A stretch of DNA of 64,000 bases from Chrysomallon squamiferum (GCA_012295275.1 CM022671.1:9982001-10046000), one strand, 5' to 3'; numbered from the stretch's first letter, positions 17,190 through 61,360 are shown. The notes: generated by a model from the letters alone, not told the origin. Numbers and translations: made by a program.

Positions 17190-17350
17190 ATAATATCTAA
17201 ACCGTGTGTGCCCACCATGGGAGTCGAGAACTGCCTGACATCTCCTTCCCATGGCAGTAATGACATTACGAATTACACCTTGTGGAATGGTGGCCCACTA
17301 TGTCTGTAGTAATAATGCCAGCTGAGCACGATTCTGTGGCTGTAGTTTAT
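17190..17350 (-). mobile_element. Tc1 transposase C-terminal remnant
   Basis: minus strand reads PQNRAQLALLLQT*WATIPQGVIRNVITAMGRRCQAVLDSHGGHTRF, matching the Tc1 C-terminus W..IP...I..LI.SM.RRC.AV....GG.T.Y. Confidence 0.85.
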
Positions 17351-18949: not shown

Positions 18950-21900
18950 TATATAGAGTTATCTCCCTTTAACAGGAAAACGATTTTTCACTATCCTTAT
19001 CATATTTCAAGTTCAGAGTTATATCAATATCTAAATTTTCTTTTTGTAAATTTTAGATTTCAACAAATTAGATATTTTCAACATTTAATTATTATTATTA
19101 ATATAAAAAAAATCTTATTTACTTTTTATATATTGATATACTAATATAACAAATAAAGATATCCTATAAATATTTCCATCTGATCTATAATTTTAATGTA
19201 AAAATCAATCATTATTTAAAATGCTTATCAAATGATTAAACAGTGTCCACTAATTAAATTCAATTAAATTATTGGATTCCATTGGTTGAAAACACACCTG
19301 AACATTAATCACAAGCGAATATATTGACATATAGAGTTATCTCCCTTTAGCATGAAAACGAATAACCTCTCGGATAGAGTTATCTCCCTTTGTAGCATTT
19401 TTCTGCTTGATTATTCAGGTTATAACGAACATATTCTTATATAGAGTTATCTCCCTTTAGCATGAAAACGAATAACCTCTCGGATAGAGTTATCTCCCCT
19501 TTGGTGCATTTTTCTGCTTGATTATTCAGGTTAAAACGAACATATTCTTATATAGAGTTATCTCCCTTTAGCATGAAAACGAATAACCTCTCGGATAGAG
19601 TTATCTCCCCTTCGTTGCATTTTTCTGCTTGATTATTCAGGTTAAAACGAACATATTCTTATATAGAGTTATCTCCCTTTAGCATGAAAACGAATAACCT
19701 ATCGGATAGAGTTATCTCCCCTTCGTTGCATTTTTCTGCTTGATTATTCAGGTTAAAACGAACATATTCTTATATAGAGTTATCTCCCTTTAGCATGAAA
19801 ACGAATAACCTAATTATCTCCTTCGGATAAACGAACATTATTCTCCCTTTTTAGCATGAAAACGAATAACCTCTCGGATAGAGTTATCTCCCTTTGTTGC
19901 ATTTTCCTCCTTGATTATTCAGGATAAAACGAATATATTCTTACATAGCGTTATCTACCCTTGTTACTGTTTATACTTTGATTATTCAGAAAGGGGAGAT
20001 AACACCATCCCTGAATTTATTCGTTTTCATATTAAAGGGACGTAACTCTATTTGCGAATATATTCGCTTGTGACTATTAGTAAGGGATATTTTGTTTAAT
20101 ATAATAAATAAAATAAGTCAAATCAAAAAAATGAAAAAGATAAATTATCACTTTTCATTAAGTATATATATAATTAAATTTTAAGACTATATATTAAATT
20201 ATTAAATAATTGATAATTTTGATAATAATATTAAACGAAAAATAACAAATAATGGCATAATGAATCAATAATAAATTTATTATTACATTAAATATTTTCA
20301 CAAACATTGATGAATCTTCTATTCAGATATTTCCACAAATTGATTTCATATCAAGTAATTCTGATAAACCCTTTTATAATGTAAGAAAGGAGAGATAACT
20401 CCATCCGAGATAGTATTCGTTTTCATATTAAAGGGAAATAACTCTATTTGTGAATATATTCGCTGGTAACTATTATTAAGAAATATTTTATTTAATATAA
20501 TAAATATTCATTTGTTACTCCTTTTACCATCGGACAAAAGTATAGTGTAGAAAACAATTCTTGTACTTTTAAGTTTTCACTATCCTTATCATATTTCAAG
20601 TTCAGAGTTATATCAAAATGTAAATTTTCTTTTTGTAAATTTTAGATTTCAACAAATTAGATATTTTCAACATTGAATTATTATTATTAATATAAAAAAA
20701 AAAATTTATTTACCTTTTATATATTGATATACTAATATAACAAATAAAGAACATCCTATAAATATTTCCATCTGATCTATAATTTTAATGTAAAAAAATC
20801 AATCATTATTTAAAATACTTATCAAATGATTAAACAGTGTCCACTAATTAAATTCAATTAAATTATTGGATTCCATTGGTTGAAAACACACCTGAACATT
20901 AATCACAAGCGAATATATTGACATATAGAGTTATCTCCCTTTAGCATGAAAACGAATAACCTCTCGGATAGAGTTATCTCCTTTTGTAGCATTTTTCTGC
21001 TTGATTATTCAGGTTATAACGAACATATTCTTATATAGAGTTATCTCCCCTTTAGCATGAAAACGAATAACCTATCGGATAGAGTTATCTCCCCTTCGTT
21101 GCATTTTTTTTCTGCTTGATTATTCAGGTTAAAACGAACATATTCTTATATAGAGTTATCTTCCTTTAGCATGAAAACGAATAACCTCTCGGATAGAGGT
21201 ATCTCCCCTTCGTTGCATTTTTCTGCTTGATTATTCAGGTTAAAACGAACATATTCTTATATAGAGTTATCTCCCTTTAGCATGAAAACGAATAACCTCT
21301 CGGATAGAGTTATCTCCCTTTGTTGCATTATTGAAACAGCTTAAAGAATGAACAAAAAAAAAAAAATGAATAAAAAAAAAAAATCTAAGGAAACAGAACG
21401 AAACTATTTAAACGGAGCATTCTTTTCAGACTTTATTCATAATAAAATATAAAATCGTATGTGGACTGCATTGATTATCATGATAGGAATTTCCATACTG
21501 AATTTCTTTATTTGATTACTGACAAAGAAAACAGAGAATACTGACTGACTGAAGAAAAAAAATAAATAAATAAAAGCTTATGCGAAATATGTTCACTGAT
21601 ATATTTAGAATCGCCTCCCTTATGTGAGAAGTGTTCACTTCTATATTTAGAGTTACTTTCCCTATGTGAGATGTGTTCACTGGTATATTTAGAGTCGCCT
21701 CCCCTTATGTGAGATGTGTTCACTGGTATTTAGAGTCACCTCCCTATGTGATATGTGTTCACTGGTATATTTGGAGTGGCCTCCCTTATGTGAGATGTGT
21801 TCACTGGTATTTAGAGTCACCTCCCTATGTGTTATGTGTTCACTGGTATATTTGGAGTGGTCTCCCTTATGTGAGATGTGTTCACTGGTATTTAGAGTCA

Positions 21901-24900
21901 CCTCCCTTATGTGAGATGTGTTCACTGGTATTTTGAGTCGCCTCCCTTATGTGAGATGTGTTCACTGGTATATTTGGAGTGGCCTCCCTTATGTGAGATG
22001 TGTTCACTGGTATTAAGAAAATAAGATAGAAAGCTCCAACACAAAAAAAGCAAAATAAATAATCAGTGAGAGAAGAGTGTTTAAACTGATTAAAGTATTT
22101 CATAAATAAATAATAAAGAAATGGTAGCACGTAGAAAAAAGAAGGAAGAATGGAATGAAAAAGATAGGAAATAAAAAAGATGGAAAAAAAAAGAAAAAGA
22201 AAAGAAGGAAGATCGAAAAAAAAGAAGGACAGAAAGAAAAGAAAGATAGGAAAGAAAGAAAGAAAGAAAGAAAGAAAATATTGAAGCAGCTTAAAGAATG
22301 AACAAAAATGAATAAAAAAAGAAAAGAACTAACTTAACAGAATGAAGCGTGGTACTATTTAAATGCAGCATTCTTTTAACTTTTATTCATAATAAAATAT
22401 AAAATCGTATGTGGACTGCATTGATTAGCAGGATAACAATTTCCATACTGAAGAAAAAAAATAAATAAATAAAAGCTTATGCGAAATATGTTCACTGATA
22501 TATTTAGAGTAGCCTCCCTTATGCGAGAAGTGTTCACTTCTATATTTAGAGTTACTTTCCCTATGTGAGATGTATTCACTGGTATTTAGAGTCGCCTCCC
22601 CTATGTGACATGTGTTCACTGGTATAACTAGAGTTGCCTCCCCTATGTGAGATGTGTTCACTGGTATATTTGGAGTGGCCTCCCTTATGTGAGATGTGTT
22701 CACTGGTATTAAGAAAATAAGATAGAAAACTCGAATACAAAAGCTCAACAAAATAATCAGTGAAAGCAGAGTGTTTAAACTGATTAAAGTATTTCATAAA
22801 TAAATAATAAAGAAATGGTAACACGTAGAAAAAAGAAGGAAGGATGGAATGAAAGATAGGAAATAAAAGATGGAAAAGAGAGAAAGAAAAGAAAGAAAGA
22901 AAGATAGAAAAGAAAGAAGGAAAGAAAGAAAGAAAATATTGAAACAGCTTAAAGAATGAACAAAAATGAATAAGAAAAGAAAAGAAAAATCTAAGGAAAC
23001 AGAACAAAGAGTGGTACTATTTAAACGCAGCATTCTTTTCAGATTTTATTAATGATAAAATATAAAATGGTATGTGGACTGCATTGATTATCAGGATAAG
23101 AATTTACATACTAAATTCATTTGATTACTGAGAAAGAAAACAGAGAATACTGACTGACTGAAGAAAAAATAAATAAATAAAAGCTTATGCGAAATACGTT
23201 CACTGATATATTTAGAATCGCCTCCCTTATGCGAGACGTGTTCACTTCTATATTCAGAGTTACTTTCCCTATGTGAGATGTGTTCACTGGTATATTTTGA
23301 GTCGCCTCCCTTATGTGAGATGTGTTCACTGGTATTTAGAGTCACCTCCCCTATGTGATATGTGTTCACTGGTATATTTGGAGTGGCCTCCCTTATGTGA
23401 GATGTGTTCACTGGTATTTAGAGTCACCTCCCTTATGTGAGATGTGTTCACTGGTATTTAGAGTCACCTCCCCCCCTGTGATATGTGTTCACTGGTATAT
23501 TTGGAGTGGCCTCCCTTATGTGAGATGTGTTCACTGGTATTTAGAGTCACCTCCCTTATGTGAGATGTGTTCACTGGTATTTTGAGTCGCCTCCCTTATG
23601 TGAGATGTGTTCACTGGTATATTTGGAGTGGCCTCCCTTATGTGAGATGTGTTCACTGGTATTAAGAAAATAAGATTTTCCTCCTTGATTATTCAGGATA
23701 AAACGAATATATTCTTACATAGCGTTATCTACCCTTGTTACTGTTTATACTTTGATTATTCAGAAAGGGGAGATAACTCCATCCCTGAATTTATTCGTTT
23801 TCATATTAAAGGGACGTAACTCTATTTGCGAATATATTCGCTTGTGACTATTTGTAAGGGATATTTTGTTTAATATAATAAATAAAATAAGTCAAATAAA
23901 AAAATGAAAAAGATAAATTATCAGTTTTCATTAAGTATATATATAATTAAATTTTAAGACTATATATTAAATTATTAAATAATTGATAATTTTGATAATA
24001 ATATTAAACGAAAAATAACAAATAATGGCATAATGAATCAATAATAAATTTATTATTACATTAAATATTTTCACAAACATTGATGAATCTTCTATTCAGA
24101 TATTTCCACAAATTGATTTCATATCAAGTAATTCTGATAAACCCTTTTATAATGTAAGAAAGGAGAGATAACTCCATCCGAGAAAGTATTCGTTTTCATA
24201 TTAAAGGGAAATAACTATTTGTGAATATATTCGCTGGTAACTATTATTAAGAAATATTTTATTTAATATAATAAATATTCATTTGTTACTCCTTTTACCA
24301 TCGGACAAAAGTATAGTGTAGAAAACAATTCTTGTACTTTTAAGTTTTCACTATCCTTATCATATTTCAAGTTCAGAGTTATATCAAAATGTAAATTTTC
24401 TTTTTGTAAATTTTAGATTTCAACAAATTAGATATTTTCAACATTGAATTATTATTATTAATATAAAAAAAAATGTTATTTACCTTTTATATATTGATAT
24501 ACTAATATAACAAATAAAGAACATCCTATAAATATTTCCATCTGATCTATAATTTTAATGTAAAAATCAATCATTATTTAAAATGCTTATCAAATGATTA
24601 AACAGTGTCCACTAATTAAATTCAATTAAATTATTGGATTCCATTGGTTGAAAACACACCTGAACATTAATCACAAGCGAATATATTGACATATAGAGTT
24701 ATCTCCCTTTAGCATGAAAACGAATAACCTCTCGGATAGAGTTATCTCCCTTTGTAGCATTTTTCTGCTTGATTATTCAGGTTATAACGAACATATTCTT
24801 ATATAGAGTTATCTCCCTTTAGCATGAAAACGAATAACCTCTCGGATAGAGTTATCTCCCCTTTGGTGCATTTTTCTGCTTGATTATTCAGGTTAAAACG

Positions 24901-27900
24901 AACATATTCTTATATAGAGTTATCTCCCTTTAGCATGAAAACGAATAACCTCTCGGATAGAGTTATCTCCCCTTTGTTGCATTTTTCTGCTTGATTATTC
25001 AGGTTAAAACGAACATATTCTTATATAGAGTTATCTCCCTTTAGCATGAAAACGAATAACCTATCGGATAGAGTTATCTCCCCTTCGTTGCATTTTTCTG
25101 CTTGATTATTCAGGTTAAAACGAACATATTCTTATATAGAGTTATCTCCCTTTAGCATGAAAACGAATAACCTATCGGATAGAGTTATCTCCCCTTCGTT
25201 GCATTTTTCTGCTTGATTATTCAGGTTAAAACGAACATATTCTTATATAGAGTTATCTCCCTTTAGCATGAAAACGAATAACCTCTCGGATAGAGTTATC
25301 TCCCTTTGTTGCATTTTCCTCCTTGATTATTCAGGATAAAACGAATATATTCTTACATAGCGTTATCTACCCTTGTTACTGTTTATACTTTGATTATTCA
25401 GAAAGGGGAGATAACACCATCCCTGAATTTATTCGTTTTCATATTAAAGGGACGTAACTCTATTTGCGAATATATTCGCTTGTGACTATTAGTAAGGGAT
25501 ATTTTGTTTAATATAATAAATAAAATAAGTCAAATCAAAAAAATGAAAAAGATAAATTATCACTTTTCATTAAGTATATATATAATTAAATTTTAAGACT
25601 ATATATTAAATTATTAAATAATTGATAATTTTGATAATAATATTAAACGAAAAATAACAAATAATGGCATAATGAATCAATAATAAATTTATTATTACAT
25701 TAAATATTTTCACAAACATTGATGAATCTTCTATTCAGATATTTCCACAAATTGATTTCATATCAAGTAATTCTGATAAACCCTTTTATAATGTAAGAAA
25801 GGAGAGATAACTCCATCCGAGATAGTATTCGTTTTCATATTAAAGGGAAATAACTCTATTTGTGAATATATTCGCTGGTAACTATTATTAAGAAATATTT
25901 TATTTAATATAATAAATATTCATTTGTTACTCCTTTTACCATCGGACAAAAGTATAGTGTAGAAAACAATTCTTGTACTTTTAAGTTTTCACTATCCTTA
26001 TCATATTTCAAGTTCAGAGTTATATCAAAATGTAAATTTTCTTTTTGTAAATTTTAGATTTCAACAAATTAGATATTTTCAACATTGAATTATTATTATT
26101 AATATAAAAAAAAAAATTTATTTACCTTTTATATATTGATATACTAATATAACAAATAAAGAACATCCTATAAATATTTCCATCTGATCTATAATTTTAA
26201 TGTAAAAATCAATCATTATTTAAAATACTTATCAAATGATTAAACAGTGTCCACTAATTAAATTCAATTAAATTATTGGATTCCATTGGTTGAAAACACA
26301 CCTGAACATTAATCACAAGCGAATATATTGACATATAGAGTTATCTCCCTTTAGCATGAAAACGAATAACCTCTCGGATAGAGTTATCTCCTTTTGTAGC
26401 ATTTTTCTGCTTGATTATTCAGGTTATAACGAACATATTCTTATATAGAGTTATCTCCCTTTAGCATGAAAACGAATAACCTATCGGATAGAGTTATCTC
26501 CCCTTCGTTGCATTTTTCTGCTTGATTATTCAGGTTAAAACGAACATATTCTTATATAGAGTTATCTTCCTTTAGCATGAAAACGAATAACCTCTCGGAT
26601 AGAGGTATCTCCCCTTCGTTGCATTTTTCTGCTTGATTATTCAGGTTAAAACGAACATATTCTTATATAGAGTTATCTCCCTTTAGCATGAAAACGAATA
26701 ACCTCTCGGATAGAGTTATCTCCCTTTGTTGCATTATTGAAACAGCTTAAAGAATGAACAAAAATGAAAAAATGAATAAAAAAAGAAAAATCTAAGGAAA
26801 CAGAACGAAACTATTTAAACGGAGCATTCTTTTCAGACTTTATTCATAATAAAATATAAAATCGTATGTGGACTGCATTGATTATCATGATAGGAATTTC
26901 CATACTGAATTTCTTTATTTGATTACTGACAAAGAAAACAGAGAATACTGACTGACTGAAGAAAAAATAAATAAATAAAAGCTTATGCGAAATATGTTCA
27001 CTGATATATTTAGAATCGCCTCCCTTATGTGAGAAGTGTTCACTTCTATATTTAGAGTTACTTTCCCTATGTGAGATGTGTTCACTGGTATATTTAGAGT
27101 CGCCTCCCTTATGTGAGATGTGTTCACTGGTATTTAGAGTCACCTCCCCTATGTGATATGTGTTCACTGGTATATTTGGAGTGGCCTCCCTTATGTGAGA
27201 TGTGTTCACTGGTATTTAGAGTCACCTCCCCTATGTGTTATGTGTTCACTGGTATATTTGGAGTCGCTCCCTTATGTGAGATGTGTTCACTGGTATTTAG
27301 AGTCACCTCCCTTATGTGAGATGTGTTCACTGGTATTTTGAGTCGCCTCCCTTATGTGAGATGTGTTCACTGGTATATTTGGAGTGGCCTCCCTTATGTG
27401 AGATGTGTTCACTGGTATTAAGAAAATAAGATAGAAAGCTCCAACACAAAAGCTCAAATAAATAATCAGTGAGAGAAGAGTGTTTAAACTGATTAAAGTA
27501 TTTCATAAATAAATAATAAAGAAATGGTAGCACGTAGAAAAAAGAAGGAAGAATGGAATGAAAGATAGGAAATAAAAGATGGAAAAGAAAAAAGAAATGA
27601 AAGAAAGGAAGATCGAAAAGAAAGAAGGACAGAAAGAAAAGAAAGAAGGAAAGAAAGAAAGGAAGAAAATATTGAAGCAGCTTAAAGAATGAACAAAAAT
27701 GAATAAAAAAGAAAAGAACTAACTTAACAGAATGAAGCGTGGTACTATTTAAATGCAGCATTCTTTTAACTTTTATTCATAATAAAATATAAAATCGTAT
27801 GTGGACTGCATTGATTAGCAGGATAACAATTTCCATACTGAAGAAAAAATAAATAAATAAAAGCTTATGCGAAATATGTTCACTGATATATTTAGAGTAG

Positions 27901-30900
27901 CCTCCCTTATGCGAGAAGTGTTCACTTCTATATTTAGAGTTACTTTCCCTATGTGAGATGTATTCACTGGTATTTAGAGTCGCCTCCCCTATGTGACATG
28001 TGTTCACTGGTATAACTAGAGTTGCCTCCCCTATGTGAGATGTGTTCACTGGTATATTTGGAGTGGCCTCCCTTATGTGAGATGTGTTCACTGGTATTAA
28101 GAAAATAAGATAGAAAACTCGAATACAAAAGCTCAACAAAATAATCAGTGAAAGCAGAGTGTTTAAACTGATTAAAGTATTTCATAAATAAATAATAAAG
28201 AAATGGTAACACGTAGAAAAAAGAAGGAAGGATGGAATGAAAGATAGGAAATAAAAGATGGAAAAGAGAGAAAGAAAAGAAAGAAAGAAAGATAGAAAAG
28301 AAAAGAAGGAAAGAAAGAAAGAAAATATTGAAACAGCTTAAAGAATGAACAAAAATGAATAAGAAAAGAAAACAAAAATCTAAGGAAACAGAACAAAGAG
28401 TGGTACTATTTAAACGCAGCATTCTTTTCAGATTTTATTAATGATAAAATATAAAATGGTATGTGGACTGCATTGATTATCAGGATAAGAATTTACATAC
28501 TAAATTCATTTGATTACTGAGAAAGAAAACAGAGAATACTGACTGACTGAAGAAAAAATAAATAAATAAAAGCTTATGCGAAATACGTTCACTGATATAT
28601 TTAGAATCGCCTCCCTTATGCGAGAAGTGTTCACTTCTATATTCAGAGTTACTTTCCCTATGTGAGATGTGTTCACTGGTATATTTTGAGTCGCCTCCCT
28701 TATGTGAGATGTGTTCACTGGTATTTAGAGTCACCTCCCCTATGTGATATGTGTTCACTGGTATATTTGGAGTGGCCTCCCTTATGTGAGATGTGTTCAC
28801 TGGTATTTAGAGTCACCTCCCTTATGTGAGATGTGTTCACTGGTATTTAGAGTCACCTCCCCTATGTGATATGTGTTCACTGGTATATTTGGAGTGGCCT
28901 CCCTTATGTGAGATGTGTTCACTGGTATTTAGAGTCACCTCCCTTATGTGAGATGTGTTCACTGGTATTTTGAGTCGCCTCCCTTATGTGAGATGTGTTC
29001 ACTGGTATATTTGGAGTGGCCTCCCTTATGTGAGATGTGTTCACTGGTATTAAGAAAATAAGATTTTCCTCCTTGATTATTCAGGATAAAACGAATATAT
29101 TCTTACATAGCGTTATCTACCCTTGTTACTGTTTATACTTTGATTATTCAGAAAGGGGAGATAACTCCATCCCTGAATTTATTCGTTTTCATATTAAAGG
29201 GACGTAACTCTATTTGCGAATATATTCGCTTGTGACTATTTGTAAGGGATATTTTGTTTAATATAATAAATAAAATAAGTCAAATCAAAAAAATGAAAAA
29301 GATAAATTATCAGTTTTCATTAAGTATATATATAATTAAATTTTAAGACTATATATTAAATTATTAAATAATTGATAATTTTGATAATAATATTAAACGA
29401 AAAATAACAAATAATGGCATAATGAATCAATAATAAATTTATTATTACATTAAATATTTTCACAAACATTGATGAATCTTCTATTCAGATATTTCCACAA
29501 ATTGATTTCATATCAAGTAATTCTGATAAACCCTTTTATAATGTAAGAAAGGAGAGATAACTCCATCCGAGATAGTATTCGTTTTTTCATATTAAAGGGA
29601 AATAACTATTTGTGAATATATTCGCTGGTAACTATTATTAAGAAATATTTTATTTAATATAATAAATATTCATTTGTTACTCCTTTTACCATCGGACAAA
29701 AGTATAGTGTAGAAAACAATTCTTGTACTTTTAAGTTTTCACTATCCTTATCATATTTCAAGTTCAGAGTTATATCAAAATGTAAATTTTCTTTTTGTAA
29801 ATTTTAGATTTCAACAAATTAGATATTTTCAACATTGAATTATTATTATTAATATAAAAAAAAAATGTTATTTACCTTTTATATATTGATATACTAATAT
29901 AACAAATAAAGAACATCCTATAAATATTTCCATCTGATCTATAATTTTAATGTAAAAATCAATCATTATTTAAAATACTTATCAAATGATTAAACAGTGT
30001 CCACTAATTAAATTCAATTAAATTATTGGATTCCATTGGTTGAAAACACACCTGAACATTAATCACAAGCGAATATATTGACATATAGAGTTATCTCCCT
30101 TTAGCATGAAAACGAATAACCTCTCGGATAGAGTTATCTCCTTTTGTAGCATTTTTCTGCTTGATTATTCAGGTTATAACGAACATATTCTTATATAGAG
30201 TTATCTCCCTTTAGCATGAAAACGAATAACCTATCGGATAGAGTTATCTCCCCTTCGTTGCATTTTTTCTGCTTGATTATTCAGGTTAAAACGAACATAT
30301 TCTTATATAGAGTTATCTTCCTTTAGCATGAAAACGAATAACCTCTCGGATAGAGGTATCTCCCCTTCGTTGCATTTTTCTGCTTGATTATTCAGGTTAA
30401 AACGAACATATTCTTATATAGAGTTATCTCCCTTTAGCATGAAAACGAATAACCTCTCGGATAGAGTTATCTCCCTTTGTTGCATTATTGAAACAGCTTA
30501 AAGAATGAACAAAAATGAAAAAATGAATAAAAAAAGAAAAATCTAAGGAAACAGAACGAAACTATTTAAACGGAGCATTCTTTTCAGACTTTATTCATAA
30601 TAAAATATAAAATCGTATGTGGACTGCATTGATTATCATGATAGGAATTTCCATACTGAATTTCTTTATTTGATTACTGACAAAGAAAACAGAGAATACT
30701 GACTGACTGAAGAAAAAATAAATAAATAAAAGCTTATGCGAAATATGTTCACTGGTATATTTAGAATCGCCTCCCTTATGTGAGAAGTGTTCACTTCTAT
30801 ATTTAGAGTTACTTTCCCTATGTGAGATGTGTTCACTGGTATATTTAGAGTCGCCTCCCTTATGTGAGATGTGTTCACTGGTATTTAGAGTCACCTCCCC

Positions 30901-33900
30901 TATGTGATATGTGTTCACTGGTATATTTGGAGTGGCCTCCCTTATGTGAGATGTGTTCACTGGTATTTAGAGTCACCTCCCCTATGTGTTATGTGTTCAC
31001 TGGTATATTTGGAGTGGTCTCCCTTATGTGAGATGTGTTCACTGGTATTTAGAGTCACCTCCCTTATGTGAGATGTGTTCACTGGTATTTTGAGTCGCCT
31101 CCCTTATGTGAGATGTGTTCACTGGTATATTTGGAGTGGCCTCCCTTATGTGAGATGTGTTCACTGGTATTAAGAAAATAAGATAGAAAGCTCCAACACA
31201 AAAGCTCAAATAAATAATCAGTGAGAGAAGAGTGTTTAAACTGATTAAAGTATTTCATAAATAAATAATAAAGAAATGGTAGCACGTAGAAAAAAGAAGG
31301 AAGAATGGAATGAAAGATAGGAAATAAAAGATGGAAAAGAAAAAAGAAATGAAAGAAAGGAAGATCGAAAAGAAAGAAGGACAGAAAGAAAAGAAAGAAG
31401 GAAAGAAAGAAAGGAAGAAAATATTGAAGCAGCTTAAAGAATGAACAAAAATGAATAAAAAAGAAAAGAACTAACTTAACAGAATGAAGCGTGGTACTAT
31501 TTAAATGCAGCATTCTTTTAACTTTTATTCATAATAAAATATAAAATCGTATGTGGACTGCATTGATTAGCAGGATAACAATTTCCATACTGAAGAAAAA
31601 ATAAATAAATAAAAGCTTATGCGAAATATGTTCACTGATATATTTAGAGTAGCCTCCCTTATGCGAGAAGTGTTCACTTCTATATTTAGAGTTACTTTCC
31701 CTATGTGAGATGTATTCACTGGTATTTAGAGTCGCCTCCCCTATGTGACATGTGTTCACTGGTATAACTAGAGTTGCCTCCCCTATGTGAGATGTGTTCA
31801 CTGGTATATTTGGAGTGGCCTCCCTTATGTGAGATGTGTTCACTGGTATTAAGAAAATAAGATAGAAAACTCGAATACAAAAGCTCAACAAAATAATCAG
31901 TGAAAGCAGAGTGTTTAAACTGATTAAAGTATTTCATAAATAAATAATAAAGAAATGGTAACACGTAGAAAAAAGAAGGAAGGATGGAATGAAAGATAGG
32001 AAATAAAAGATGGAAAAGAGAGAAAGAAAAGAAAGAAAGAAAGATAGAAAAGAAAGAAGGAAAGAAAGAAAGAAAATATTGAAACAGCTTAAAGAATGAA
32101 CAAAAATGAATAAGAAAAGAAAACAAAAATCTAAGGAAACAGAACAAAGAGTGGTACTATTTAAACGCAGCATTCTTTTCAGATTTTATTAATGATAAAA
32201 TATAAAATGGTATGTGGACTGCATTGATTATCAGGATAAGAATTTACATACTAAATTCATTTGATTACTGAGAAAGAAAACAGAGAATACTGACTGACTG
32301 AAGAAAAAATAAATAAATAAAAGCTTATGCGAAATACGTTCACTGATATATTTAGAATCGCCTCCCTTATGCGAGAAGTGTTCACTTCTATATTCAGAGT
32401 TACTTTCCCTATGTGAGATGTGTTCACTGGTATATTTAGAGTCGCCTCCCTTATGTGAGATGTGTTCACTGGTATTTAGAGTCACCTCCCCTATGTGATA
32501 TGTGTTCACTGGTATATTTGGAGTGGCCTCCCTTATGTGAGATGTGTTCACTGGTATTTAGAGTTACTTTCCCTATGTGATATGTGTTCACTGGTATATT
32601 TGGAGTGGCCTCCCTTATGTGAGATGTGTTCACTGGTATTTAGAGTCACCTCCCTTATGTGAGATGTGTTCACTGGTATTTTGAGTCGCCTCCCTTATGT
32701 GAGATGTGTTCACTGGTATATTTGGAGTGGCCTCCCTTATGTGAGATGTGTTCACTGGTATTAAGAAAATAAGATAGAAAGCTCGAATACAAAAGGTCCC
32801 TAAATAATCATTTTGTAGATGTGTTATTCAGGTTATAACTATTCTTATATAGAGTTATCTCCCTTTAGCATGAAAACGAATAACCTCTCGGATAGAGTTA
32901 TCTCCCCTTTGTTGCATTTTTCTCCTTGATTATTCAGGTTAAAACGAACATATTCTTATATAGAGTTATCTCCCTTTAGCATGAAAACGAATAACCTCTC
33001 GGATAGTTATCTCCCCTTTGTTGCATTTTTCTGCTTGATTATTCAGGTTAAAACGAACATATTCTTATATAGAGTTATCTCCCTTTAGCATGAAAACGAA
33101 TAACCTCTCGGATAGAGTTATCTCCCTTTGTTGCATTTTCCTCCTTGATTATTCAGGATAAAACGAATATATTCTTACATAGCGTTATCTACCCTTGTTA
33201 CTGTTTATACTTTGATTATTCAGAAAGGGGAGATAACTCCATCCCTGAATTTATTCGTTTTCATATTAAAGGGACGTAACTCTATTTGCGAATATATTCG
33301 CTTGTGACTATTAGTAAGGGATATTTTGTTTAATATAATAAATAAAATAAGTCAAATCAAAAAAATGAAAAAGATAAATTATCACTTTTCATTAAGTATA
33401 TATATAATTAAATTTTAAGACTATATATTAAATTATTAAATAATTGATAATTTTGATAATAATATTAAACGAAAAATAACAAATAATGGCATAATGAATC
33501 AATAATAAATTTATTATTACATTAAATATTTTCACAAACATTGATGAATCTTCTATTCAGATATTTCCACAAATTGATTTCATATCAAGTAATTCTGATA
33601 AACCCTTTTATAATGTAAGAAAGGAGAGATAACTCCATCCGAGATAGTATTCGTTTTCATATTAAAGGGAAATAACTCTATTTGTGAATATATTCGCTGG
33701 TAACTATTATTAAGAAATATTTTATTTAATATAATAAATATTCATTTGTTACTCCTTTTACCATCGGACAAAAGTATAGTGTAGAAAACAATTCTTGTAC
33801 TTTTAAGTTTTCACTATCCTTATCATATTTCAAGTTCAGAGTTATATCAAAATGTAAATTTTCTTTTTGTAAATTTTAGATTTCAACAAATTAGATATTT

Positions 33901-34345
33901 TCAACATTGAATTATTATTATTAATATAAAAAAAAAATGTTATTTACCTTTTATATATTGATATACTAATATAACAAATAAAGAACATCCTATAAATATT
34001 TCCATCTGATCTATAATTTTAATGTAAAAATCAATCATTATTTAAAATACTTATCAAATGATTAAACAGTGTCCACTAATTAAATTCAATTAAATTATTG
34101 GATTCCATTGGTTGAAAACACACCTGAACATTAATCACAAGCGAATATATTGACATATAGAGTTATCTCCCTTTAGCATGAAAACGAATAACCTCTCGGA
34201 TAGAATTATCTCCCCTTTGTTGCGGTTTTCTGCTTGATTATTCAGGTTAAAACGAATATATTCTTACATGGAGTTATCTACCCTTGTTACTGTTTAAATT
34301 CTGGGATGGAGTCATCTCCCCTTTCTGAATAATCAAAGTATATTC
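18950..34345. repeat. composite higher-order tandem repeat (112-bp A arrays, 40/42-bp B arrays, AT-rich spacer blocks)
   Basis: A unit tatagagttatctccctttagcatgaaaacgaataacctctcggatagagttatctcccc...; B unit atgtgagatgtgttcactggta(ta)tttagagtcrcctccctt. A marker string recurs at ~21431, 26838, 30589 (periods ~5.4 kb and ~3.75 kb); copies are nearly identical. Confidence 0.95.
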
Positions 34346-36586: not shown

Positions 36587-39500
36587 TTTTAGTTTCATGA
36601 TATATATTTTCATCAAAATAATTTTTAATTTAATCATAAAGTTTATTACAAACGACATTGTCATAAATAAAAAAAACATTCTGAAGCAGACCAATATTTA
36701 AACAAATGATCATATGGAAAATGTTTTGTTTGTATTAAATTTGCCAAAAAAAAAAAATGAAATAATAATAATATGCAAATACTGTAACTGTGATAGCAAA
36801 GAAAAATAAATGAATGTGACCCTAAAAAGTTTTCTACATATTTAAGCATCAAGCATAATGACAACTTGACAGCTGCAACAGTTTTTAACACTACAGCTAA
36901 ATATTTTTAATATGCATCTTTCCATATACAAAAAAACAAATCAGTCATGGTGCACTCACTGAAAGGAAAATGACCAGTGAGTGAATTTTGCAGACTGATC
37001 TTTCAGCCCGTCACATCTAGACAATTTCTGTCACTACTATTCCAAGAAAGATCATTTATTATCCACAACATTTACCTTTCAGAAAATAAGCATTCTGTCT
37101 CTTTCTTAGATCAACAAATCCCTTAAGTATCTGCAAAGTAGTATTTCTGAATTTGAATAATTTGTATGAATTATTAATTAAAATAGCAAAAATTAGCTAC
37201 TCACTCATCCATTAGACAATTTGAGTATTATCCTTTCAGTTGCTGATCTCTATTCCAATTTATCATTTTAAATAAATTATAACTTAATTTATGTAATTTA
37301 TATATTATAAATTTTAAATAATTTTAAATAATTTTAAATATTAATTAGTTGGTTAAACAGTTGCAAAATGAAAGAGTACAACTACATGAATCTTATAAAT
37401 ATTAAAATCAATCTACATTTACCTGTTTGTCAATCTTGGTTTTGTGGTACACACACATGTTGATCATGTTCTGCAGAGACTGGGGATCTTGTGGAAGGAG
37501 GGAACAGTCATTAACTGTAAACTCATCTCCCTTCTCTATGGCCTTGTCCACTTCCTTGAAAAAATCAGTTTCTGTTGGTGTTTTCACTATAAACATAAAG
37601 AAAACCATGAACAAAAATAAAAATATGTTTGTTATGTACCATGTCTGATCCAAACATAAAGGTAGTATATCTAAATTAACAAACAAGAATGATTTTCTCT
37701 TTCTGGGGAGAAGAAAAGTAAAAAACAAGACAGGTGGAGTTGATTTACCTAATTATTATTATTATTTAAAAAACCAAAAAAGAAATAAAATAAAATAAAC
37801 AGCTAAATAATAAATAATAATAAATAAACAGCTGTCTATGGAGACCATTTAGATTTTTATCTCAGTACATTAAAATATAATTTACGACAACAAAAATAAA
37901 CATTTTGAAAAGACTCACTTGCAGGGCAGATCAGGGTGAGTCGTTCAATTTGTTCTGGATACCGTGCTGCATATAGACCAGATATTGCCCCACCCAGAGA
38001 TGTTCCTATCAAGTGGAATGGTGCTTTGTCTAGGCCAACAAGTTCTATAAACTGGAAAGATAAAATATCCAGCAAGTTAGAGCCATCAACAACAATGGAA
38101 AGAATAATAAAATATTAAAATAATAATAATAATAATAAAATAAGATATGATAAAAATAAGATAAGATAAGATATAAAATAAAACAAAACAAAACAAAATA
38201 AAATAAAAAATAGAACTGAACTGAAATAATACTAAAAGACACATATACACCTACAATTAAAAGCTATTGGTTCATACCTTATGGATTCTCTCCAAGAAGA
38301 GGTCAAAACATATTTCCTCATTTTCACCTGGGGTGGATGATGCCCCATGACCAGGCAGATCTAATGCAATGAGATGTATATCACTGGACAGCTTCTGAAA
38401 CAGGTAATAATAAAGATTTAATTTGTTCCTTGACCAAGCTAGTAACTCAATTTGTTCATATATCAAATCAATTTTCCAAACTGAAATTAACTGAAATACC
38501 ATTAATCCATTCCAGCCCCCAAAAACCACCCCATTTATTTGGTAATGTGTTTTTAAAATATTGAATAAAAACAAAATAAAAGAGAATGTAAAGAAAGAAA
38601 TTGGTTTTGTAAAGTGTATTTATCTTGGAGATCAGACAAACTATTTTAATGACTTTGGCTGACGTTACAGCCTTTATTGATTCATTCTGCTTCAGTATGG
38701 TACATATCATAAAATTACTACACTGGAGCTGTCTAGCCAAGTTGACTACATGCACATCTCACTCATGTTTCTCTTTGCTTTCATGCTTTAATTCAATGGA
38801 CATTATCTACTTCTTCTTCTCAGCACTGTCCTTTGCACTCACTTTCTTATGATCCATGGTAGGCAAAACAAAATTTGGCAATATACTGCACAAAATGCAA
38901 ACACAACTCAAAGGGTCATTCCATGTCAAATCACCCCCCAAAAAAAAGAAAATTTAAACCCATCCGTCTCAGATTTTTATGAAACTTGGTATACTTGTTG
39001 ACTGAGATCCCACAGCACCAAATCTGAAATTTTAGGCCAATCAGACAAGTGATGTTGGAGATATGGCCCACCGAATTTTGAGATTTTTGGCAAAAATGGG
39101 TGCGACCACCAACCTTTGAACCATCATATCTTGGGAACTACTGGGCCAATCTTCATAAAATTGGTATTGTTGAAAAGGCAATATGACAAGGATTCCAAAT
39201 CTGCCATTATTGTTCAGTTTGGAAAAATTTGGGGGTCACTGACCTTTTGACCTTTGTTATGACCTTGAAATAACCATGTGGATCACATGACCTTGAGATG
39301 ACTTATATTGAAATTTAATCTCCCACATGTTAACTAAAGCATATAAAAGTTTCCTGGGTGTAATATTTTTTATTTAGCCACAATAGAGATTTAAAAAATG
39401 CACATACATGAAAATAACACCTTTTCAGCCATTAACATCTGATTAACTAAATGCTAGGATGCTAGGAATCACCATCTCTCTTGATCACTGAGTAAGACAT

Positions 39501-42500
39501 TGTAGGCCTACATGTATGCATAAAGTTCACATAAATTTGAGAGAACTAGGTGTTTCTGATGTTTAACCTTCTCACCATCTTTGTTTCAAATGCTCACTTA
39601 TCCTTCATTCCCAGACACATTCTACTGTTCTCGTCACTTTCGTAAAATTGGACTATTTCCTCCTTCAATTCATTTGACAGAACTTTCCCTTGTTTCTTAT
39701 CACAGAGGGATAGAACCCCTTTCTCTTTCTTAACCACACGGCTTTTTTTTTTTCACAAGGTAATTTGTTGTTTCAAATTCATTCATTGTCCTTTCAATGG
39801 TAAAGGGTGACAAAGTCAAGACTTGCACACGATCTGGGTAGGATTTGGTCTTGTTGAATTTCTCTTTTAACTCCAACATGTTCCTGAAAAAATGAAGGTC
39901 CGATTTTTCTGATGGGTCACTTTCAGGAGAATGAAGCGGAATATCATAGACTGTTTCAAGATATCGTTTTAATGTTACTGTACCTGATTTTTTCTGTCCT
40001 TTCATTCGTTTACTGGAACGTGCTAGTGAATGGAGTTTAACAGGAGTTTCTCCTAAACTTGACAGGATAGAATTAAAATCAAAGTCCTTTTCTGGGGAAA
40101 CAACAACCAGTGGTTTGTCTGACAAGTTATCATCAAATTCTCCCATAGTAATGCCACCCATACTAAAGCCATCCTCTGCAGGGTTTTGAACCTTTGATTT
40201 TTGAAGGCTAATCAAACAGTCACAGTGCAACTTGTCTCCTGGCACTAGTGTCTTTGGCTTCACTAAGCATTTGTAAGTGCCCATGCTAACAATTCTTAAA
40301 GATCTAGTGCATGCTTGCTTAGGATGGTGATTAAGGAGATCACAATTCTTTTTTGATAATGTTGAAAACTTTATTAAAAGTTCTTGTTCATGATGTGAAC
40401 AGATACTCTTGATGTCCCGTGTTTTGATCCCACTTTGAAGAGTGAGGAGTTAGACTTCCTCAGTTTTCCATACACTTCGCAACAACTCCTTTTTGGTATG
40501 ATAGTGTTGATAACACACATTTTCAGGAGAGTAAAAGCTGCAGTTAGTCCTGGAAGAAATAAGGATTTTCAATATTGCCTGCACCTTCAATTCAATGGAA
40601 CAAAGTCAGTGCTCTCCTAAATATCAAATAAAACCCTGAAACCCTTTCAGTAAAGTAAAGCAGGTCATAAAATGGCAGCAGAGTACATATGTCTTCGCCA
40701 ACGGCATTTAGGTCAAACTTTTCAAGTATAAATCACAGTTTATCAAGGTGAAGGTAGACCTTGTTCATACTCTGTTCTGAAGACTGGGTGTACAAATACA
40801 TTATGCAGTACATCACTTGATGAAGTCTGATTTCAGACTGGGTTGTACTGTTGTTGAACAAAACCATTGGCAAGGCCACCTGACATGATAAAATGACTTA
40901 ATAGGTTTTATGAAGAAAACATAATGTTTACATATCAACATCTGACATTGTGTCCAACTTGAAAACTTCAGACTGTCAAAGAAATGCAGATGAAGAAACT
41001 TCTTTGTCTTAAACTTGTAATTGCAACGTGCTCAATGGGGATTTCACCAGGGGATTTCAAGGATCCTAACATGCCTGTTAACCCTTTGAGACTGATTGTG
41101 TAGAACATATCATGCCATTTGGCATCTTTTCATATCCTTCAGGCATTCCTTCAGACATGTCAGGGGGGTTTTAACTCCAAAGATGAGCTTTTGGTCTCAG
41201 AGAAAATGTACATTGTAATGCATTTATCAATCATCCATGCAGGTATGCATTTTTTAAATCTATATTGTGGCTGAACAAAAAATATTACACCCAGGAAACT
41301 TTTATATGTTTTAGTTACCATGTAGGAGATTAAATTTCAATAAAAGTCATCTCAAAGTCACGTGATCCACATAGTCAATTTCAAGGTCATAACAAAGATC
41401 AAAAAGTCAGTGACCCCCAAATTCTTGTCATTTTGCCTTTTCAACAGATTTGGTGCTGTGGGATCCCAATCAACAAGTATACCAAGTTTCATAAAAATCT
41501 GAGATGGTCAGGTTTAACCCATTGGGTGATTTGACACAGAATGACCCCAAAGCAAAACATCAACCAAGTGACTGCTTGTAACTAGGAAAATTTTGTAAGT
41601 CAAGGTACCACTGTATATATATATATATATACACACACACGTCTAAAATAAGGTAAAAATAGTTGAAAATAAAATTTTATAAAAAGTAACTGATGTTGTA
41701 CAGTGATTTGAAATAGTCACATAGGAATAATAAATTTAAATTATTGGTTAGAGTTCATTACTAAATATAAGTCAATTTACTAATTTTGTATAATTTTATG
41801 TTCTGTGATTAAACAAGTAAAATTAATAAAAGCAAACTGCATGTAATAGAAAATCAGTTTTAAACTATCAAAAGGTTTATTTCAATAATTCTAAAGGTTT
41901 CTTGAGGCCATTTCCTAAAAACATTACCATTCATCGGCTGTGTATATTTTTAATGTTAAAAATATTTAGTAATTTACAAGTGGTAAAAACCTTGAAAAAT
42001 GGAACAAACATATCCTTTGAAGCTGTGAAGCCATGAATAAGTAAAATTGATGACTTGTCCGGCATGGGGTGACCTCGCTCACCGTAGCAATAAATAAAAC
42101 CATCTTCTCCAATGTACTTGATGTTCATATGACTCATATAGCGATAAAACCTTAAAAAAAAAAAATAATAATAAATTAAAATATGCCAGTGTTATAATGC
42201 TAAAATATGTAAATAATATATTTTCATAATGTAAATATTATTGTACAGTTAATGTTAATATTTGTATTAATAGTTGATAAATCATCATAAATTCATCTGT
42301 CACTTAATAATTTATTTCAGAACACAACTTTATATCATGGTAAAATCAATAAAGATTCATTTCTCTTTTTATAATTTGGTTCCTAAAAGTTAAAACATTA
42401 TTCTGCCACAGCTACACTGGCAAAGAAAGTATAATTTCTGTTTATGATTTTAAAGAAATTGTTTAATAAAAAATAAATAAATATAATTTTTTTATTTAAG

Positions 42501-55519: not shown

Positions 55520-55737
55520 TGTCAAGACTGTGGTAATCGGTGCCCACCAGGAACATGTTGTGTTCATATATTTTGCCAGGTAGACGTCGAATGCTTGTTG
55601 ATGGGTACTGCAGAAAACTGAATCAAGAAGGAGACACCTGTGAGAGAGATGTCAGTTTTGGTGATTGCCCAAGCACAGACGGCTTGAAATGTTCAGTTAC
55701 AGCAGATCAAATGACTGGTCACTGTGTCAAAAAATAA
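55520..55737 (+). pseudogene. decayed prokineticin/colipase-like Cys-rich secreted peptide exon, copy 2
   Basis: acceptor ttccag, then CQDCGNRCPPGTCCVH / frameshift / ILPGRRRMLVDGYCRKLNQEGDTCERDVSFGDCPSTDGLKCSVTADQMTGHCVKK*; CPS replaces the usual CPC; AATAAA follows at ~55760. Confidence 0.65.
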
Positions 55738-57019: not shown

Positions 57020-57796
57020 TTTTAATCTATTGGGATGTATTATGAAGAAAGCGTAGCCTATCATATGGCGCCCAGCAGTGGTCACGATCAAATGAAATGT
57101 AAATGTAAACTTAAAATCTAAGTAGTTAATTCTGTCCTTAATTATTAATTGTGAGGCTATACTTGTTTTTTCATTCACACACACACACACATGGGCCAAG
57201 AAGAAGAATATCCATTAATGCTATGATAATGAATAAAACATTTTTTTTTTTTTTTTTTTTTTTTACAGCAACAGATTGCAAGTTCTCAGACGTGTTGTTG
57301 ATAAAAAGTGTATAAGATTTGTGGAAAAGATCGAGCCTAAATAACTACATATAAAATACTACATTTAAAAAAAAGAAAAGAAAAAAAAAAAAGAAAAAAG
57401 GAAAACAAAAGAAACAATAATAATAATAATAATAATAATAACAAAAAGAAACAGAATTTTTTATTATTATTATAGAATGTTTAAAAAAGATCATTGAATT
57501 AATATATTATAAAATTTAAAGATAATTTTGCTGAGTTTAACATATAAATATTCAAGAAATTTTGAGATTTGGGATAAATCGCATATTGACTATCTTACAG
57601 ATAATTCAGTATTTATATTGTATTTATCTGTCTATCTATCAGTCTACACACACACATGCACACAGACATAAGTAGACTGGTAAATAGAGAGAAAGAAAGA
57701 GAAAGAGTGAAATAGAGGTACAAACACATGTATGCAAAATAAAATATAAAAAAATTCTGAGTATACGAGTGTGTGTCGTGTATTTGTTCCATATGG

Positions 57797-57904
57797 TGAG
57801 TCATGGGAATACTAGAGTACGCTCACGTCACGCAGCTAACCCAGTAAGATAATATTTAAACATTTTATATCTGTCTCTTCAGTTTTCACTTCAATCAGGT
57901 AAGC
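57797..57904 (+). promoter_or_regulatory. putative core promoter and non-coding exon 1 of the peptide-precursor gene
   Basis: TGAGTCA (57797), TCACGTCA (57823), TATTTAAA (57853) 28 nt upstream of Inr-like TCAGTT (A at 57881), donor CAG|GTAAGC at 57899; the next acceptor precedes ATG 58308. Confidence 0.55.
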
Positions 57905-57947
57905 AGAGTTTGGTCCTTTTTCACAAATGTGATTTAAAATAATAATC

Positions 57948-57985
<38 letters not shown>

Positions 57986-58307
57986 TTTCAAAACACTTTG
58001 TGTACTCTGAACAGAACGCAACGCTTAACGTCTTTCAGATAACATTTATTTGTTTAATAATTCAAAAATAATCGATTATTATTATTAATATTATTATTAT
58101 TATTATTATTATTATTAAAAACAAAAAGAAAGACAGCTTTCTAAGTAAGAATTCAACATTAGAAACTAAAACGAATTTAAAAGGTTATGATTTCAAATAG
58201 ATTCTGTAAGAAAATATATTATATAAAATTTAAAAAATACTTTATTCTGAAATAATGTGTGTGTGTGTGTGTTTGACAGATCATTCTTACATTTCAGACG
58301 GAGCATC

Positions 58308-59943
58308 ATGAAGGTTTTAGTTATCGTGACTCTGTGTATTGCAGTAACTTCAGCTTACGATGGTAACTTTTATCATAAATATAAAATTATACTTTAACAA
58401 TCAGTAAACATTCTTCGGGTGTTATTATTTCATTTTAATCTGTTCTTCAATAAATATTTTAAAATAACAATTTTAATCAGTTATTTTAGGTAGATCAAGC
58501 TAAAGTGACACTTAAAATTCATATATATGAAAATATTGTGATAATAAATTTTGAAGATCAGTAACTTTGTTATTTTAATAAATTATAAAGATTTAATATA
58601 CAGGGTGACTGGAAAGTCATTCCCTATTTTAAACAGTCCATAATTTTTTTATTTGCACTTGATTAAAAGGATTTCCAAACTTCGTACGTGATTCTACCTG
58701 GGCACGTTCTTTTAGAGTCAACTTTCTTTGCATCTTAATAGGGTTTTTGAATTTTAAACAAAATAATTAATCTGAAAAGAAAAACAATAATACTTTTAAA
58801 CAAAATAATCATCTGAAAAGAAAATAACAATCTAGATTTAATTTTCATATATTAAATAACATAAATGAAGGAACTGAGAAAAAAGTAAGAGCAAATTAAA
58901 AAATTATGAACTGTTTAAAATAGGGAATGACTTTTCAATCACCCTGTATATAATATACAAACGTTATATTTCATTATAAAAAAATATTTCTTTATTTCAT
59001 GAATTCTTCATATTATTTTTATTTTATTATTATTTTTTTTTTTCTCTTTAATTTATTGTTATTGCAGAGAGAGGCCTTGCAGACTTTCTTGAAAATGCCA
59101 CCAAAGGAACAAAACTGGGTACAGCATTTGAAGTGATCAGTGCTTTTGGAAAAGTTAGCAAATTCATTCATGATCTTAAGAGTATAGCACCAGCTGCTCA
59201 TGCTGCTCTGACTGACAGCATCAGAGACATCAAAGGAAGCATTAATAAGGTCACAACCAAACTCACAGGACAGGTGGAAGATAAATTAGGTACTGATTAT
59301 GATTTTTTTTTCTTTCTGTTTTGTTATCGTAAGGCTTCCTGTAGCTACGTGGTTGTCTCAAGATGGTTGTAGCAAAATGATAATAAGCATTGTAGCATAA
59401 TGACTGTGGCAAGATGGTCGTGGCTAAACTGTTGTTGCAAGACGGATATTGCAAAGAGTTTTGTGGCAGTATATAATTAGAAAGTTATAGCTATATGAAT
59501 CTTGCATAACTATATAATGATAGAGTAAGAGAATAGATAATGTTCTGTTTAGAAATAATTTTTGAAAATATTTATTTATTGTTGTTAACCATTCATTTAT
59601 ATTATTTTCTTAAAAGGTAAACGCGGCCTAGCAGATCTTCTTGCAAGTGCTACGAAGGGAACTAAATTGGGAGCCGCCTTTGATGTCATCAGTGCTTTTG
59701 GAAAAGTGAGCAAGTTTATCAAAGATCTGAAAAACATCGCTCCCACAGCCCATGCAGCCTTGACCGACAGCATCAAAGATATCAAGGAAAGCATGAATAA
59801 CATCACAACAAAACTCACAGGAGAAATCGAATCCAATTTAGGTATGTAATGGAAAAGTCTTTGTTATTATTATCATCATCTCCGTTATAATTAATATATA
59901 CAAATATTTAAATATTAGTTTAAATTAGTAAACAAAGTACAGA

Positions 59944-60001
<58 letters not shown>

Positions 60002-60353
60002 TTATGTCTATAATTTTATTTTCTTAAAAGGAAAACGCGGCCTAGCAGATCTTCTTGCAAGTGCTACGAAGGGAACTAAATTGGGAGCCGCCTTTGATGT
60101 CATCAGTGCTTTTGGAAAAGTGAGCAAGTTTATCAAAGATCTGAAAAACATCGCTCCCGCAGCCCATGCAGCCTTGACCGACAGCATCAAAGATATCAAG
60201 GAAAGCATGAATAACATCACAACAAAACTCACAGGAGAAATCGAATCCAATTTAGGTATGTAATGGAAAAGTCTTTGTTATTATTATCATCATCTCCGTT
60301 ATAATTAATATATACAAATATTTAAATATTAGTTTAAATTAGTAAACAAAGTA

Positions 60354-60450
<97 letters not shown>

Positions 60451-61019
60451 TTATGTCTATAATTTTATTTTCTTAAAAGGAAAACGCGGCCTAGCAGATC
60501 TTCTTGCAAGTGCTACGAAGGGAACTAAATTGGGAGCCGCCTTTGATGTCATCAGTGCTTTTGGAAAAGTGAGCAAGTTTATCAAAGATCTGAAAAACAT
60601 CGCTCCCGCAGCCCATGCAGCCTTGACCGACAGCATCAAAGATATCAAGGAAAGCATGAATAACATCACAACAAAACTCACAGGAGAAATCGAATCCAAT
60701 TTAGGTATGTAATGGAAAAGTCTTTATTATCGTCATCGTCACCTTTATAGTTAATATTTGCAATACCATTAAACAAAGTACTTATGTCGATAATATAATC
60801 GCAAACCTTTAGCCTAGGCTTTTATCCATAACAGTTTCCAGCAGCAATCCTATTTGTATATGTGAATATTATTGTATATGTGTAATTATATATAATATAT
60901 AACATATTCAGTTCTGAGAAAGAGAAATATATAGAGAAGGGATACAGAGATACAGGCAGTAAGCAATAACAATATTAACAACAACAACATATTAATAATA
61001 ATCACAGTATAATTCTTAA

Positions 61020-61079
<60 letters not shown>

Positions 61080-61360
61080 GAACTGGAAATTCTTGAATGT
61101 TTTATTTTTACTTTGATAAATAATTATTCAGATTTGTTCTTGCAGGGAAACGATCATTAACAGATCTTCTTGCGAGTGCTGCAAAAGGAACGAATTTAGG
61201 GAAAGCTTTTGATATTATAAGCGCATTTGGAAAAGTGACCAAACTTATCACTGATGTAAAAAATATTGCTCCAGAGGCGCATGCCATCTTAACCGACAGC
61301 ATCAAAGACGTGAACGTCGCCATAAGCAGCATCGTAAAAGGACTCATTCATGCTTTGTAA
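58308..61360 (+). CDS. secreted polyprotein precursor of five linear amphipathic ~70-aa peptides (~388 aa; family not recognised)
   Basis: exons 58308-58362 (signal MKVLVIVTLCIAVTSA-YD), 59068-59289, 59617-59841, 60031-60255, 60480-60704, 61146-61360; all phase-1 GT-AG introns, open frame of 1167 nt; G-K-R between units; AATAAA overlaps the stop. Confidence 0.9.
58601..58946. mobile_element. Tc1/mariner-type MITE in the precursor gene intron
   Basis: TA|CAGGGTGACTGGAAAGTCATTCCCTATTTTAAACAG...CTGTTTAAAATAGGGAATGACTTTTCAATCACCCTG|TA; ~60-bp TIRs, TA TSD. Confidence 0.92.
59600..60730 (+). repeat. recent exon+intron tandem triplication (periods 414 and 449 bp)
   Basis: exons and flanking intron sequence are nearly identical; the period difference is due to (CT)n length (~59945-59995 vs ~60358-60444). 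Confidence 0.95.

Follow-up and report, generated by a model that had tools for sequence, protein, structure and literature searches.

A gene of six coding exons (58308-61360, plus strand) in a 64,000-nucleotide stretch of Chrysomallon squamiferum DNA, hereafter the window, gives on splicing a 388-residue open frame. The encoded precursor consists of a 16-residue hydrophobic leader, the tetrapeptide Y-D-E-R, four 72-residue units with G-K-R after each of them, and a final 68-residue unit. The unit is an unnamed domain, set in the already known architecture of tandemly repetitive polyproteins. With a confidence somewhat short of even, the gene is read as belonging to a new family of such polyproteins that may release apolipoprotein-like binders of lipid surfaces. 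What is distinct here is the layout of one unit per exon, together with an apparently uncut form in chelicerates.

The spliced gene proposed in the first-pass annotation holds up: there are six exons and five GT..AG introns, and RNA contigs cross introns 1 and 2. All five introns are in phase 1. The four between units split the Gly codon of G-K-R; therefore, each unit corresponds to one symmetrical exon. Read by eye and against homologues, the 16-residue N-terminus resembles a signal peptide, and export of the product is likely. The features of the locus are as follows.

57896-57903, plus strand: candidate splice donor CAG/GTAAG of a putative upstream non-coding exon, by pattern only
58298-58362, plus strand: first coding exon, with a 10-base 5' UTR after an AG acceptor, the ATG at 58308, the 16-residue signal-like peptide and the start of YDER
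58308-58362, plus strand: coding part of exon 1, from splicing
58591-58960, no strand assigned: inverted-repeat, MITE-like element with arms of about 74 bases in intron 1, from sequence and contig depth
59068-59289, plus strand: exon 2, with the putative E-R site, unit 1 (59073-59288, 72 residues) and the first base of the Gly codon, from splicing and contigs
59617-59841, plus strand: exon 3, with a putative G-K-R site and unit 2 (59625-59840, 72 residues); GT..AG joint in X2 and X3
60031-60255, plus strand: exon 4, with a putative G-K-R site and unit 3; 2 bases different from exon 3, and a copy that the contigs do not separate
60480-60704, plus strand: exon 5, with a putative G-K-R site and unit 4; identical to exon 4, with a diverging downstream intron; X1 record 2 maps here
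61146-61360, plus strand: exon 6, with a putative G-K-R site, unit 5 (61154-61357, 68 residues, no amidation Gly) and the stop codon

The locus is partly present in five sequencing runs; four, from one study, are recorded as RNA, and the kind of X5 is not on record. Contigs of X1, X2, X3 and X5 were mapped to 57700-60850, with X4 (share 0.06) left out, and the last exon, beyond that interval, was matched through loose contig ends only. A spliced transcript was sought and found in the RNA contigs of X1-X3 from this single study. Intron 1 is bridged by contigs of X1 and X2, and intron 2, with its GT..AG borders, by those of X2 and X3; the X5 contig is unspliced across intron 2. The match of X2 record 3 begins at 58298 after 7 unmatched leading bases, with a TTTCAG acceptor immediately before it. 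An X2 contig runs through exon 1, exon 2 and one repeat exon, and its loose end is the start of the last exon; an X1 contig follows the same path. The loose ends of the X1 and X2 contigs equal the last exon letter for letter (61309-61338 and 61147-61176).

In the contigs, exon 2 is followed by one middle exon only and then by the last exon, and at position 59745 the base in X2, X3 and X5 is that of copies 3/4; the three genomic copies are therefore taken from the window itself. The single middle exon may reflect collapse by the assembler, a shorter allele or an isoform. The converse, that the three middle copies are an assembly artefact of the window sequence, was also considered. Against it, the copies are told apart by two exon bases and by the length of their microsatellites, and near-identical internal repeats are also present in homologues.

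The surrounding window is AT-rich animal DNA (GC 0.294) with many microsatellites; the mean GC of the Gigantopelta aegis genome is given as 37.22% (PMC7895826). The MITE-like element in intron 1 reaches an X5 contig depth of 190-490 versus 30-80 nearby, which indicates high copy number by that measure. Elsewhere, a large tandem duplication occupies 18985-34285, with blocks of about 3.7-5.3 kb at about 98% identity that consist of 111-bp and 42/82-bp satellites. An alpha/beta hydrolase exon with a G-x-S-x-G motif lies at 37860-38060 on the minus strand (Abhydrolase_1, 35.6 bits versus a cut-off of 25.8). GC-richer frames resembling decayed transposon coding fragments occur at 10298-11027, 17067-17297 (minus) and 39733-40449 (minus), the last without a Pfam match. 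A small Cys-rich protein has its terminal exon at 55520-55737 (plus), with a break in the reading frame near 55565, as in a pseudogene or an assembly error. Its C..C...CC...C...C...C...C...C spacing resembles that of proteins of the prokineticin/colipase fold; scanning its two frames separately gave no Pfam match.

Recomputation reproduced the unit sequences of the first-pass annotation, their lengths (72, 72, 72, 72 and 68 residues), the proline at position 40, the absence of Cys, and the nine Lys versus eight Asp plus Glu in unit 2. The window units also contain no Trp, are 57-100% identical to one another and have masses of 7.0-7.6 kDa. For unit 1 as an amide the calculated average mass is about 7598.7, for units 2-4 as amides 7518.6 and 7488.6, and for unit 5 as a free acid 7014.1. 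Diverged units show dN of 0.09-0.32 versus dS of about 1.2-2.5 (unit 1 against 2, dN 0.10 and dS 1.86; unit 2 against 5, dN 0.245 and dS 1.18). Here dN lies far below dS, as in an old gene under purifying selection. Over 64 codons, units 2-4 are at most one base apart, which points to very recent internal expansion or homogenisation.

A phmmer search of 1.84 billion representatives returned 23 matches, of which 19 fit the unit profile. The phage-tail-like and HEAT-like repeats P0017 and P0022-P0024 scored at most 7 bits, or not at all, against that profile and were set aside as chance. In these word-limited searches, tandem units of about 70 residues were found in nine named genera or species groups of molluscs, a brachiopod and chelicerates. 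The closest relative is an orthologue in the vent snail Gigantopelta aegis, LOC121369178 (XP_041350026/7), which has 7-8 units and is 89% identical to unit 2. Further members come from Patella (two species; P. vulgata LOC126828323), Lottia (LOTGIDRAFT_237655), the chiton Liolophura (LOC135471470), Batillaria (BaRGS_00009160), the brachiopod Lingula (LOC106178393), Limulus (LOC106478509), Tachypleus (LOC143258433) and the scorpion Centruroides (LOC111632277). Like the window protein, the homologues have the unit of about 70 residues, Pro40, a G-T-K-L-G turn, the tandem layout and mostly a signal-like N-terminus. Unit number ranges from 4 to 8, and isoform pairs drop units (P0001/P0002, P0003/P0035, P0006/P0025).

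Every named member is annotated as uncharacterized or hypothetical. The description of the protein as unrecognised therefore keeps its force for function and for the lack of a described family, not for relatives, which are deposited in RefSeq and GenBank as uncharacterized proteins. Searches of Pfam, PDB sequences and folds likewise pointed to no characterised family. No Pfam family fits a unit, and at E<=1 single units gave two weak, unrelated families only. Dozens of low E-values on full-length homologues are artefacts of weak scores summed over repeats, and were rejected because almost no single stretch passes alone. Sequence searches of the PDB gave designed bundles and coiled coils and nothing else, the ESM Atlas gave weak unnamed matches only, and a metagenome locus scan confirmed none of 386 pattern matches. 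Full-text literature searches found no description of the family, which subscription papers or unseen supplements could hold. Motif searches yielded no family member in the searched parts of the supplements of PMC7333891, PMC4094399, PMC8557429, PMC6425005, PMC7895826 and PMC7142155, tables of this kind often giving identifiers rather than sequences.

The mollusc-type and chelicerate-led alignments matched in hhalign with a probability of 99.5, the second alignment also holding two limpet rows. A tree of the units, built from 72 rows and 71 columns and with an unresolved backbone and a bootstrap that had not settled, places the window and Gigantopelta units in one clade (100/98), within which their last units pair (100/98). 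In Lottia, in Lingula and, weakly, in Liolophura, units cluster with others of their own species, so spiralian arrays appear to have been homogenised within lineages. The chelicerate units group by position (A1/A3, B2, B4), with horseshoe crabs and scorpion together; therefore, the four-unit A-B-A-B layout appears old and fixed. Although deposited as a hypothetical protein of Acinetobacter baumannii, P0031 (KAB1093444.1) opens with a signal-like leader, and each of its units groups with its counterpart in the Centruroides protein, which makes arachnid contamination or mislabelling likely.

Cleavage of the window precursor is predicted from its motifs at E-R before unit 1 and then at four G-K-R sites, with probable amidation of units 1-4. 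The five amidated peptides claimed at first thus become four at most, because unit 5 reaches the stop codon without a Gly. Across six full-length precursors from Gigantopelta, Patella, Lottia, Liolophura and Lingula, all 40 of the 40 units have Arg at position -1, which lies beyond the profile that served to detect the units. Cleavage is therefore probably conserved in most spiralian members. The same Arg occurs in 0/3 Batillaria units and 0/15 chelicerate units (one sub-threshold scorpion unit left out). The linkers differ accordingly: G-K-R in the vent snails, K/Q-x-R types in limpets and chiton, R-K-G-R in Lingula, and none in chelicerates and Batillaria. G-K/R-R is found at 4/4 window and 6/7 Gigantopelta internal junctions versus 0/27 in the others, so amidation would be largely lineage-specific, even if R-K-G-R of Lingula could still give an amide through G-R. 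In chelicerate P0010, P0029 and P0034, and in P0031, an aromatic Y-G/S-F motif precedes each B-type unit instead of Arg; it could be another protease site or a bundle cap.

Neuropeptide precursors typically combine a signal peptide, G-K-R repeats and amidation; these features, together with a conserved free N-terminus, would suit a precursor of long, receptor-acting hormones, with multiple helical amidated peptides like those of CRF, DH44 or ELH. This role is nevertheless highly improbable. Units of about 70 residues speak against it, as do the chelicerate members without Arg sites, the limpet and chiton members without the amidation Gly, and a Pfam result at E<=1 with nothing beyond the two weak, unrelated families. 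A CRF, DH44 or ELH row was absent from Pfam for 3 units, and for 25 units absent among the 25 of 30 families listed, short-peptide models of this sort being insensitive. Moreover, the motifs were not found in the searched supplements of two large spiralian neuropeptide surveys.

Charge bears on a second possibility. Side-chain net charge is zero or negative in 44 of 62 distinct family units (related units counted separately) and at least +3 in 5, and family units span +5 to about -10. Binding at lipid surfaces is supported by this mostly neutral or acidic composition. A cationic cytolysin family is disfavoured because cytolysins predict strongly cationic, diversifying peptides and the charge trend is the opposite; together with a net charge of only +1 to +3 in the window peptides, these counts weaken the cytolysin or antimicrobial assignment first given to the family. 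The contrast of a basic N-half with an acidic C-half, also part of that assignment, is found in units 2-4 (+3/-2) and weakly in unit 5 (+2/-1), not in unit 1 (+1/+1).

The main rival holds that the units act in defence by disrupting membranes, as antimicrobial or cytolytic peptides of mucus, haemolymph or an organ that houses symbionts, in the vent-snail lineage if not more widely. It draws on the charge of the predicted mature peptides, which is positive in 13 of 13 from the window and Gigantopelta (+1 to +5) versus 5 of 33 from Patella, Lottia, Liolophura and Lingula, and on the G-K/R-R junctions, through which the vent-snail peptides would mostly be amidated. The Gly-Leu N-terminus of the window units, their Lys-rich first helix and the Pro hinge resemble linear antimicrobial peptides, and lytic peptides that are amphipathic yet neutral or anionic do exist.

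The first processing site favours the same rival. The PQM rule asks for Arg at -1 and Glu at -2 to -4 (PMC8290080), and Y-D-E-R accords with it through Glu at -2, like the first site of spider linear cytolytic precursors (PMC8290080). The earlier reading of the tetrapeptide as acidic-X-X-R fails at position -4, which is Tyr. Cupiennins, latarcins and cyto-insectotoxins also share multi-peptide precursors, a PQM-type first site and, by prediction, amidation with the window protein (PMC8290080, PMC7889660). The spider peptides, however, are strongly cationic and have anionic iPQM/PQM linkers between them, whereas the window peptides contain 10-14% Lys plus Arg and are divided by G-K-R only. Unlike them, the window family is deeply conserved across phyla. 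The absence of anionic linkers and of Arg before any chelicerate unit weakens the suggested likeness to a venom-type linear-peptide precursor, and lipid-surface binding is the likelier role.

Strong purifying selection with homogenised repeats, in place of diversification, also tells against a defence role, as does the single copy of the gene, with no second one elsewhere in the 64-kb window. Most of the animals with the repeat-precursor gene graze or are fed by symbionts and are not known to be venomous. Overall, a defence function is considered somewhat unlikely. It is also compatible with lipid binding, since a lipid binder with gained charge and amide could act as an antimicrobial in vent snails.

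The trait common to all members is neither charge nor amidation but an amphipathic hairpin with a conserved N-terminus and the G-T-K-L-G turn. Averaged over the family, hydrophobicity has its maxima at 104, 110 and 97 degrees in three segments, a helical periodicity; Pro40 is invariant (62/62 units), Cys amounts to 0.1%, and Trp is absent across the family. An AlphaFold2 model of one unit from a 25-row alignment (pLDDT 84.5, pTM 0.64) has helices at 2-9, 14-38 and 40-71, predicting a short N-terminal helix followed by two long helices hinged at Pro40. The amphipathic helical units with a Pro hinge described at first are thus borne out by periodicity, by the invariant proline and by the hairpin model. 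For the window units, the maximal hydrophobic moment exceeds that of shuffled sequences only modestly (10-26 of 300 reach the same value). No transmembrane-grade stretch occurs in 60 of 62 family units or in any window unit. In the first long helix, 39 of 114 K/R versus 6 of 80 D/E lie within 90 degrees of the hydrophobic face, which we take to be the class-A lipid-binding pattern; this pattern was not found in the second long helix. Ordinary packing of helices into a bundle, in which lipid plays no part, would account for the amphipathic pattern just as well.

Fold comparison gave generic results. The best structural neighbours of the unit model are generic two-helix hairpins (best VIA-align Z 7.7), and a four-unit Limulus model, poor overall (pLDDT 59, pTM 0.43), reached a best Z of 11.4; both values lie within the range expected of common helical arrangements. 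WXG100/Esx hairpins ranked high structurally and were not accepted as relatives. Foldseek returned nothing at E<=0.001 for either model. Within the Limulus model, residues of about 208-335 (units 3 and 4) and about 50-183 (units 1 and 2) align to helical bundles of about 110-125 residues at about 3-4 A. This suggests with low confidence, for the horseshoe crab and not for the window protein, that two units form a four-helix bundle.

Such pairing in the Limulus model would also serve a bulk secreted structural or storage protein, for instance of mucus, egg or seminal fluid, an adhesive or an amino-acid store, the hairpins of which would assemble with one another into bundles or filaments without lipid. 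The polyprotein layout suits mass production (PMC3079579), and the variable unit number and unit-dropping isoforms suggest dosage over architecture. In contrast, the N-terminus and G-T-K-L-G turn, sharply conserved from molluscs to chelicerates, suggest a specific interaction. The motifs were not found in supplements on Patella pedal mucus (2 files) or the Lottia shell proteome (5 files), which may not list sequences. This explanation is judged unlikely.

Among known systems, the window protein shares with tandemly repetitive polyproteins its repeated similar units and regularly spaced predicted proteinase sites. The type example is the nematode polyprotein allergens (NPAs; ABA-1), tandem helical binders of fatty acid and retinoid released by cleavage (PMC3079579). 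Tandem similar units, basic cleavage motifs and all-helical units are common to both (PMC3079579). However, each NPA unit is built of seven helices and conserves one Trp and two Cys, whereas the window unit has a three-helix model and neither residue; with antigen B of cestodes, the allergens serve as the nearest working analogues. The repeat regions of NPAs and filaggrin are described as lacking introns or containing only very small ones (PMC3079579), a trait absent from the window gene, in which an intron of 189-441 bases separates each pair of units. Antigen B of Echinococcus, an 8-kDa oligomerising fatty-acid binder (PMC4358968), and related cestode hydrophobic ligand-binding proteins (HLBPs) belong to a similar size class, but they are encoded by separate genes instead of one polyprotein gene. 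The corresponding Pfam model, Taeniidae_ag, reached at best 16.2 bits (Limulus) versus a cut-off of 31.9, matching weakly 1 of 25 units and no window unit.

Exchangeable apolipoproteins and apolipophorin III are secreted bundles of amphipathic helices. Unlike the window precursor, exchangeable apolipoproteins are not cut into hairpins, and fold searches single out no structural match to them. Summed over repeats, the best Pfam scores were 45.3 versus 90 bits for Apolipoprotein and 24.6 versus 36.3 for ApoLp-III; the ApoLp-III score of the Limulus protein (22.6 versus 36.3 bits) is one among many generic helical matches. These apolipoprotein-like scores, which several members give, stay below threshold and amount to noise alongside many other helical families.

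Under the favoured reading of lipid-surface binding, a tandem-repeat precursor would be secreted by way of its signal-like N-terminus, and a prohormone convertase would cut after Arg to give amphipathic helical hairpins of about 7.5 kDa. Two units would then pair into a four-helix bundle that hides their hydrophobic faces in water. In the chelicerate proteins, which appear to stay uncut, the pairing would be covalent, A with B; in molluscs it would presumably take the form of post-cleavage dimers. Such a bundle could open onto lipid droplets, lipoprotein particles, membranes or the mucus surface, the hairpins binding there in the manner of small exchangeable apolipoproteins. The polyprotein layout would provide many copies per transcript, as in the nematode allergens. 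A more speculative extension, regarded as very unlikely, begins with a lipid-surface module in the protostome ancestor. It would have been kept as uncut A-B-A-B in chelicerates, and in spiralians it would have become a cleaved polyprotein that homogenises its own repeats. In chemosymbiotic vent snails it would finally have given cationic, amidated, membrane-active peptides of 72 residues that control or harvest symbionts.

Tandemly repetitive polyproteins have been called rare (PMC3079579). The present case adds an unnamed, predicted-secreted domain family of molluscs, brachiopods and chelicerates, in which cut and apparently uncut versions of one module occur; the gain of processing sites, amidation and positive charge can therefore be studied directly. 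Additionally, the units are short enough for chemical synthesis. If they bind lipid, they would represent a new kind of small apolipoprotein-like carrier, of which, to our knowledge, few are known in these animals. If the vent-snail versions kill bacteria, they would constitute a new class of long antimicrobial peptides in a chemosymbiotic host.
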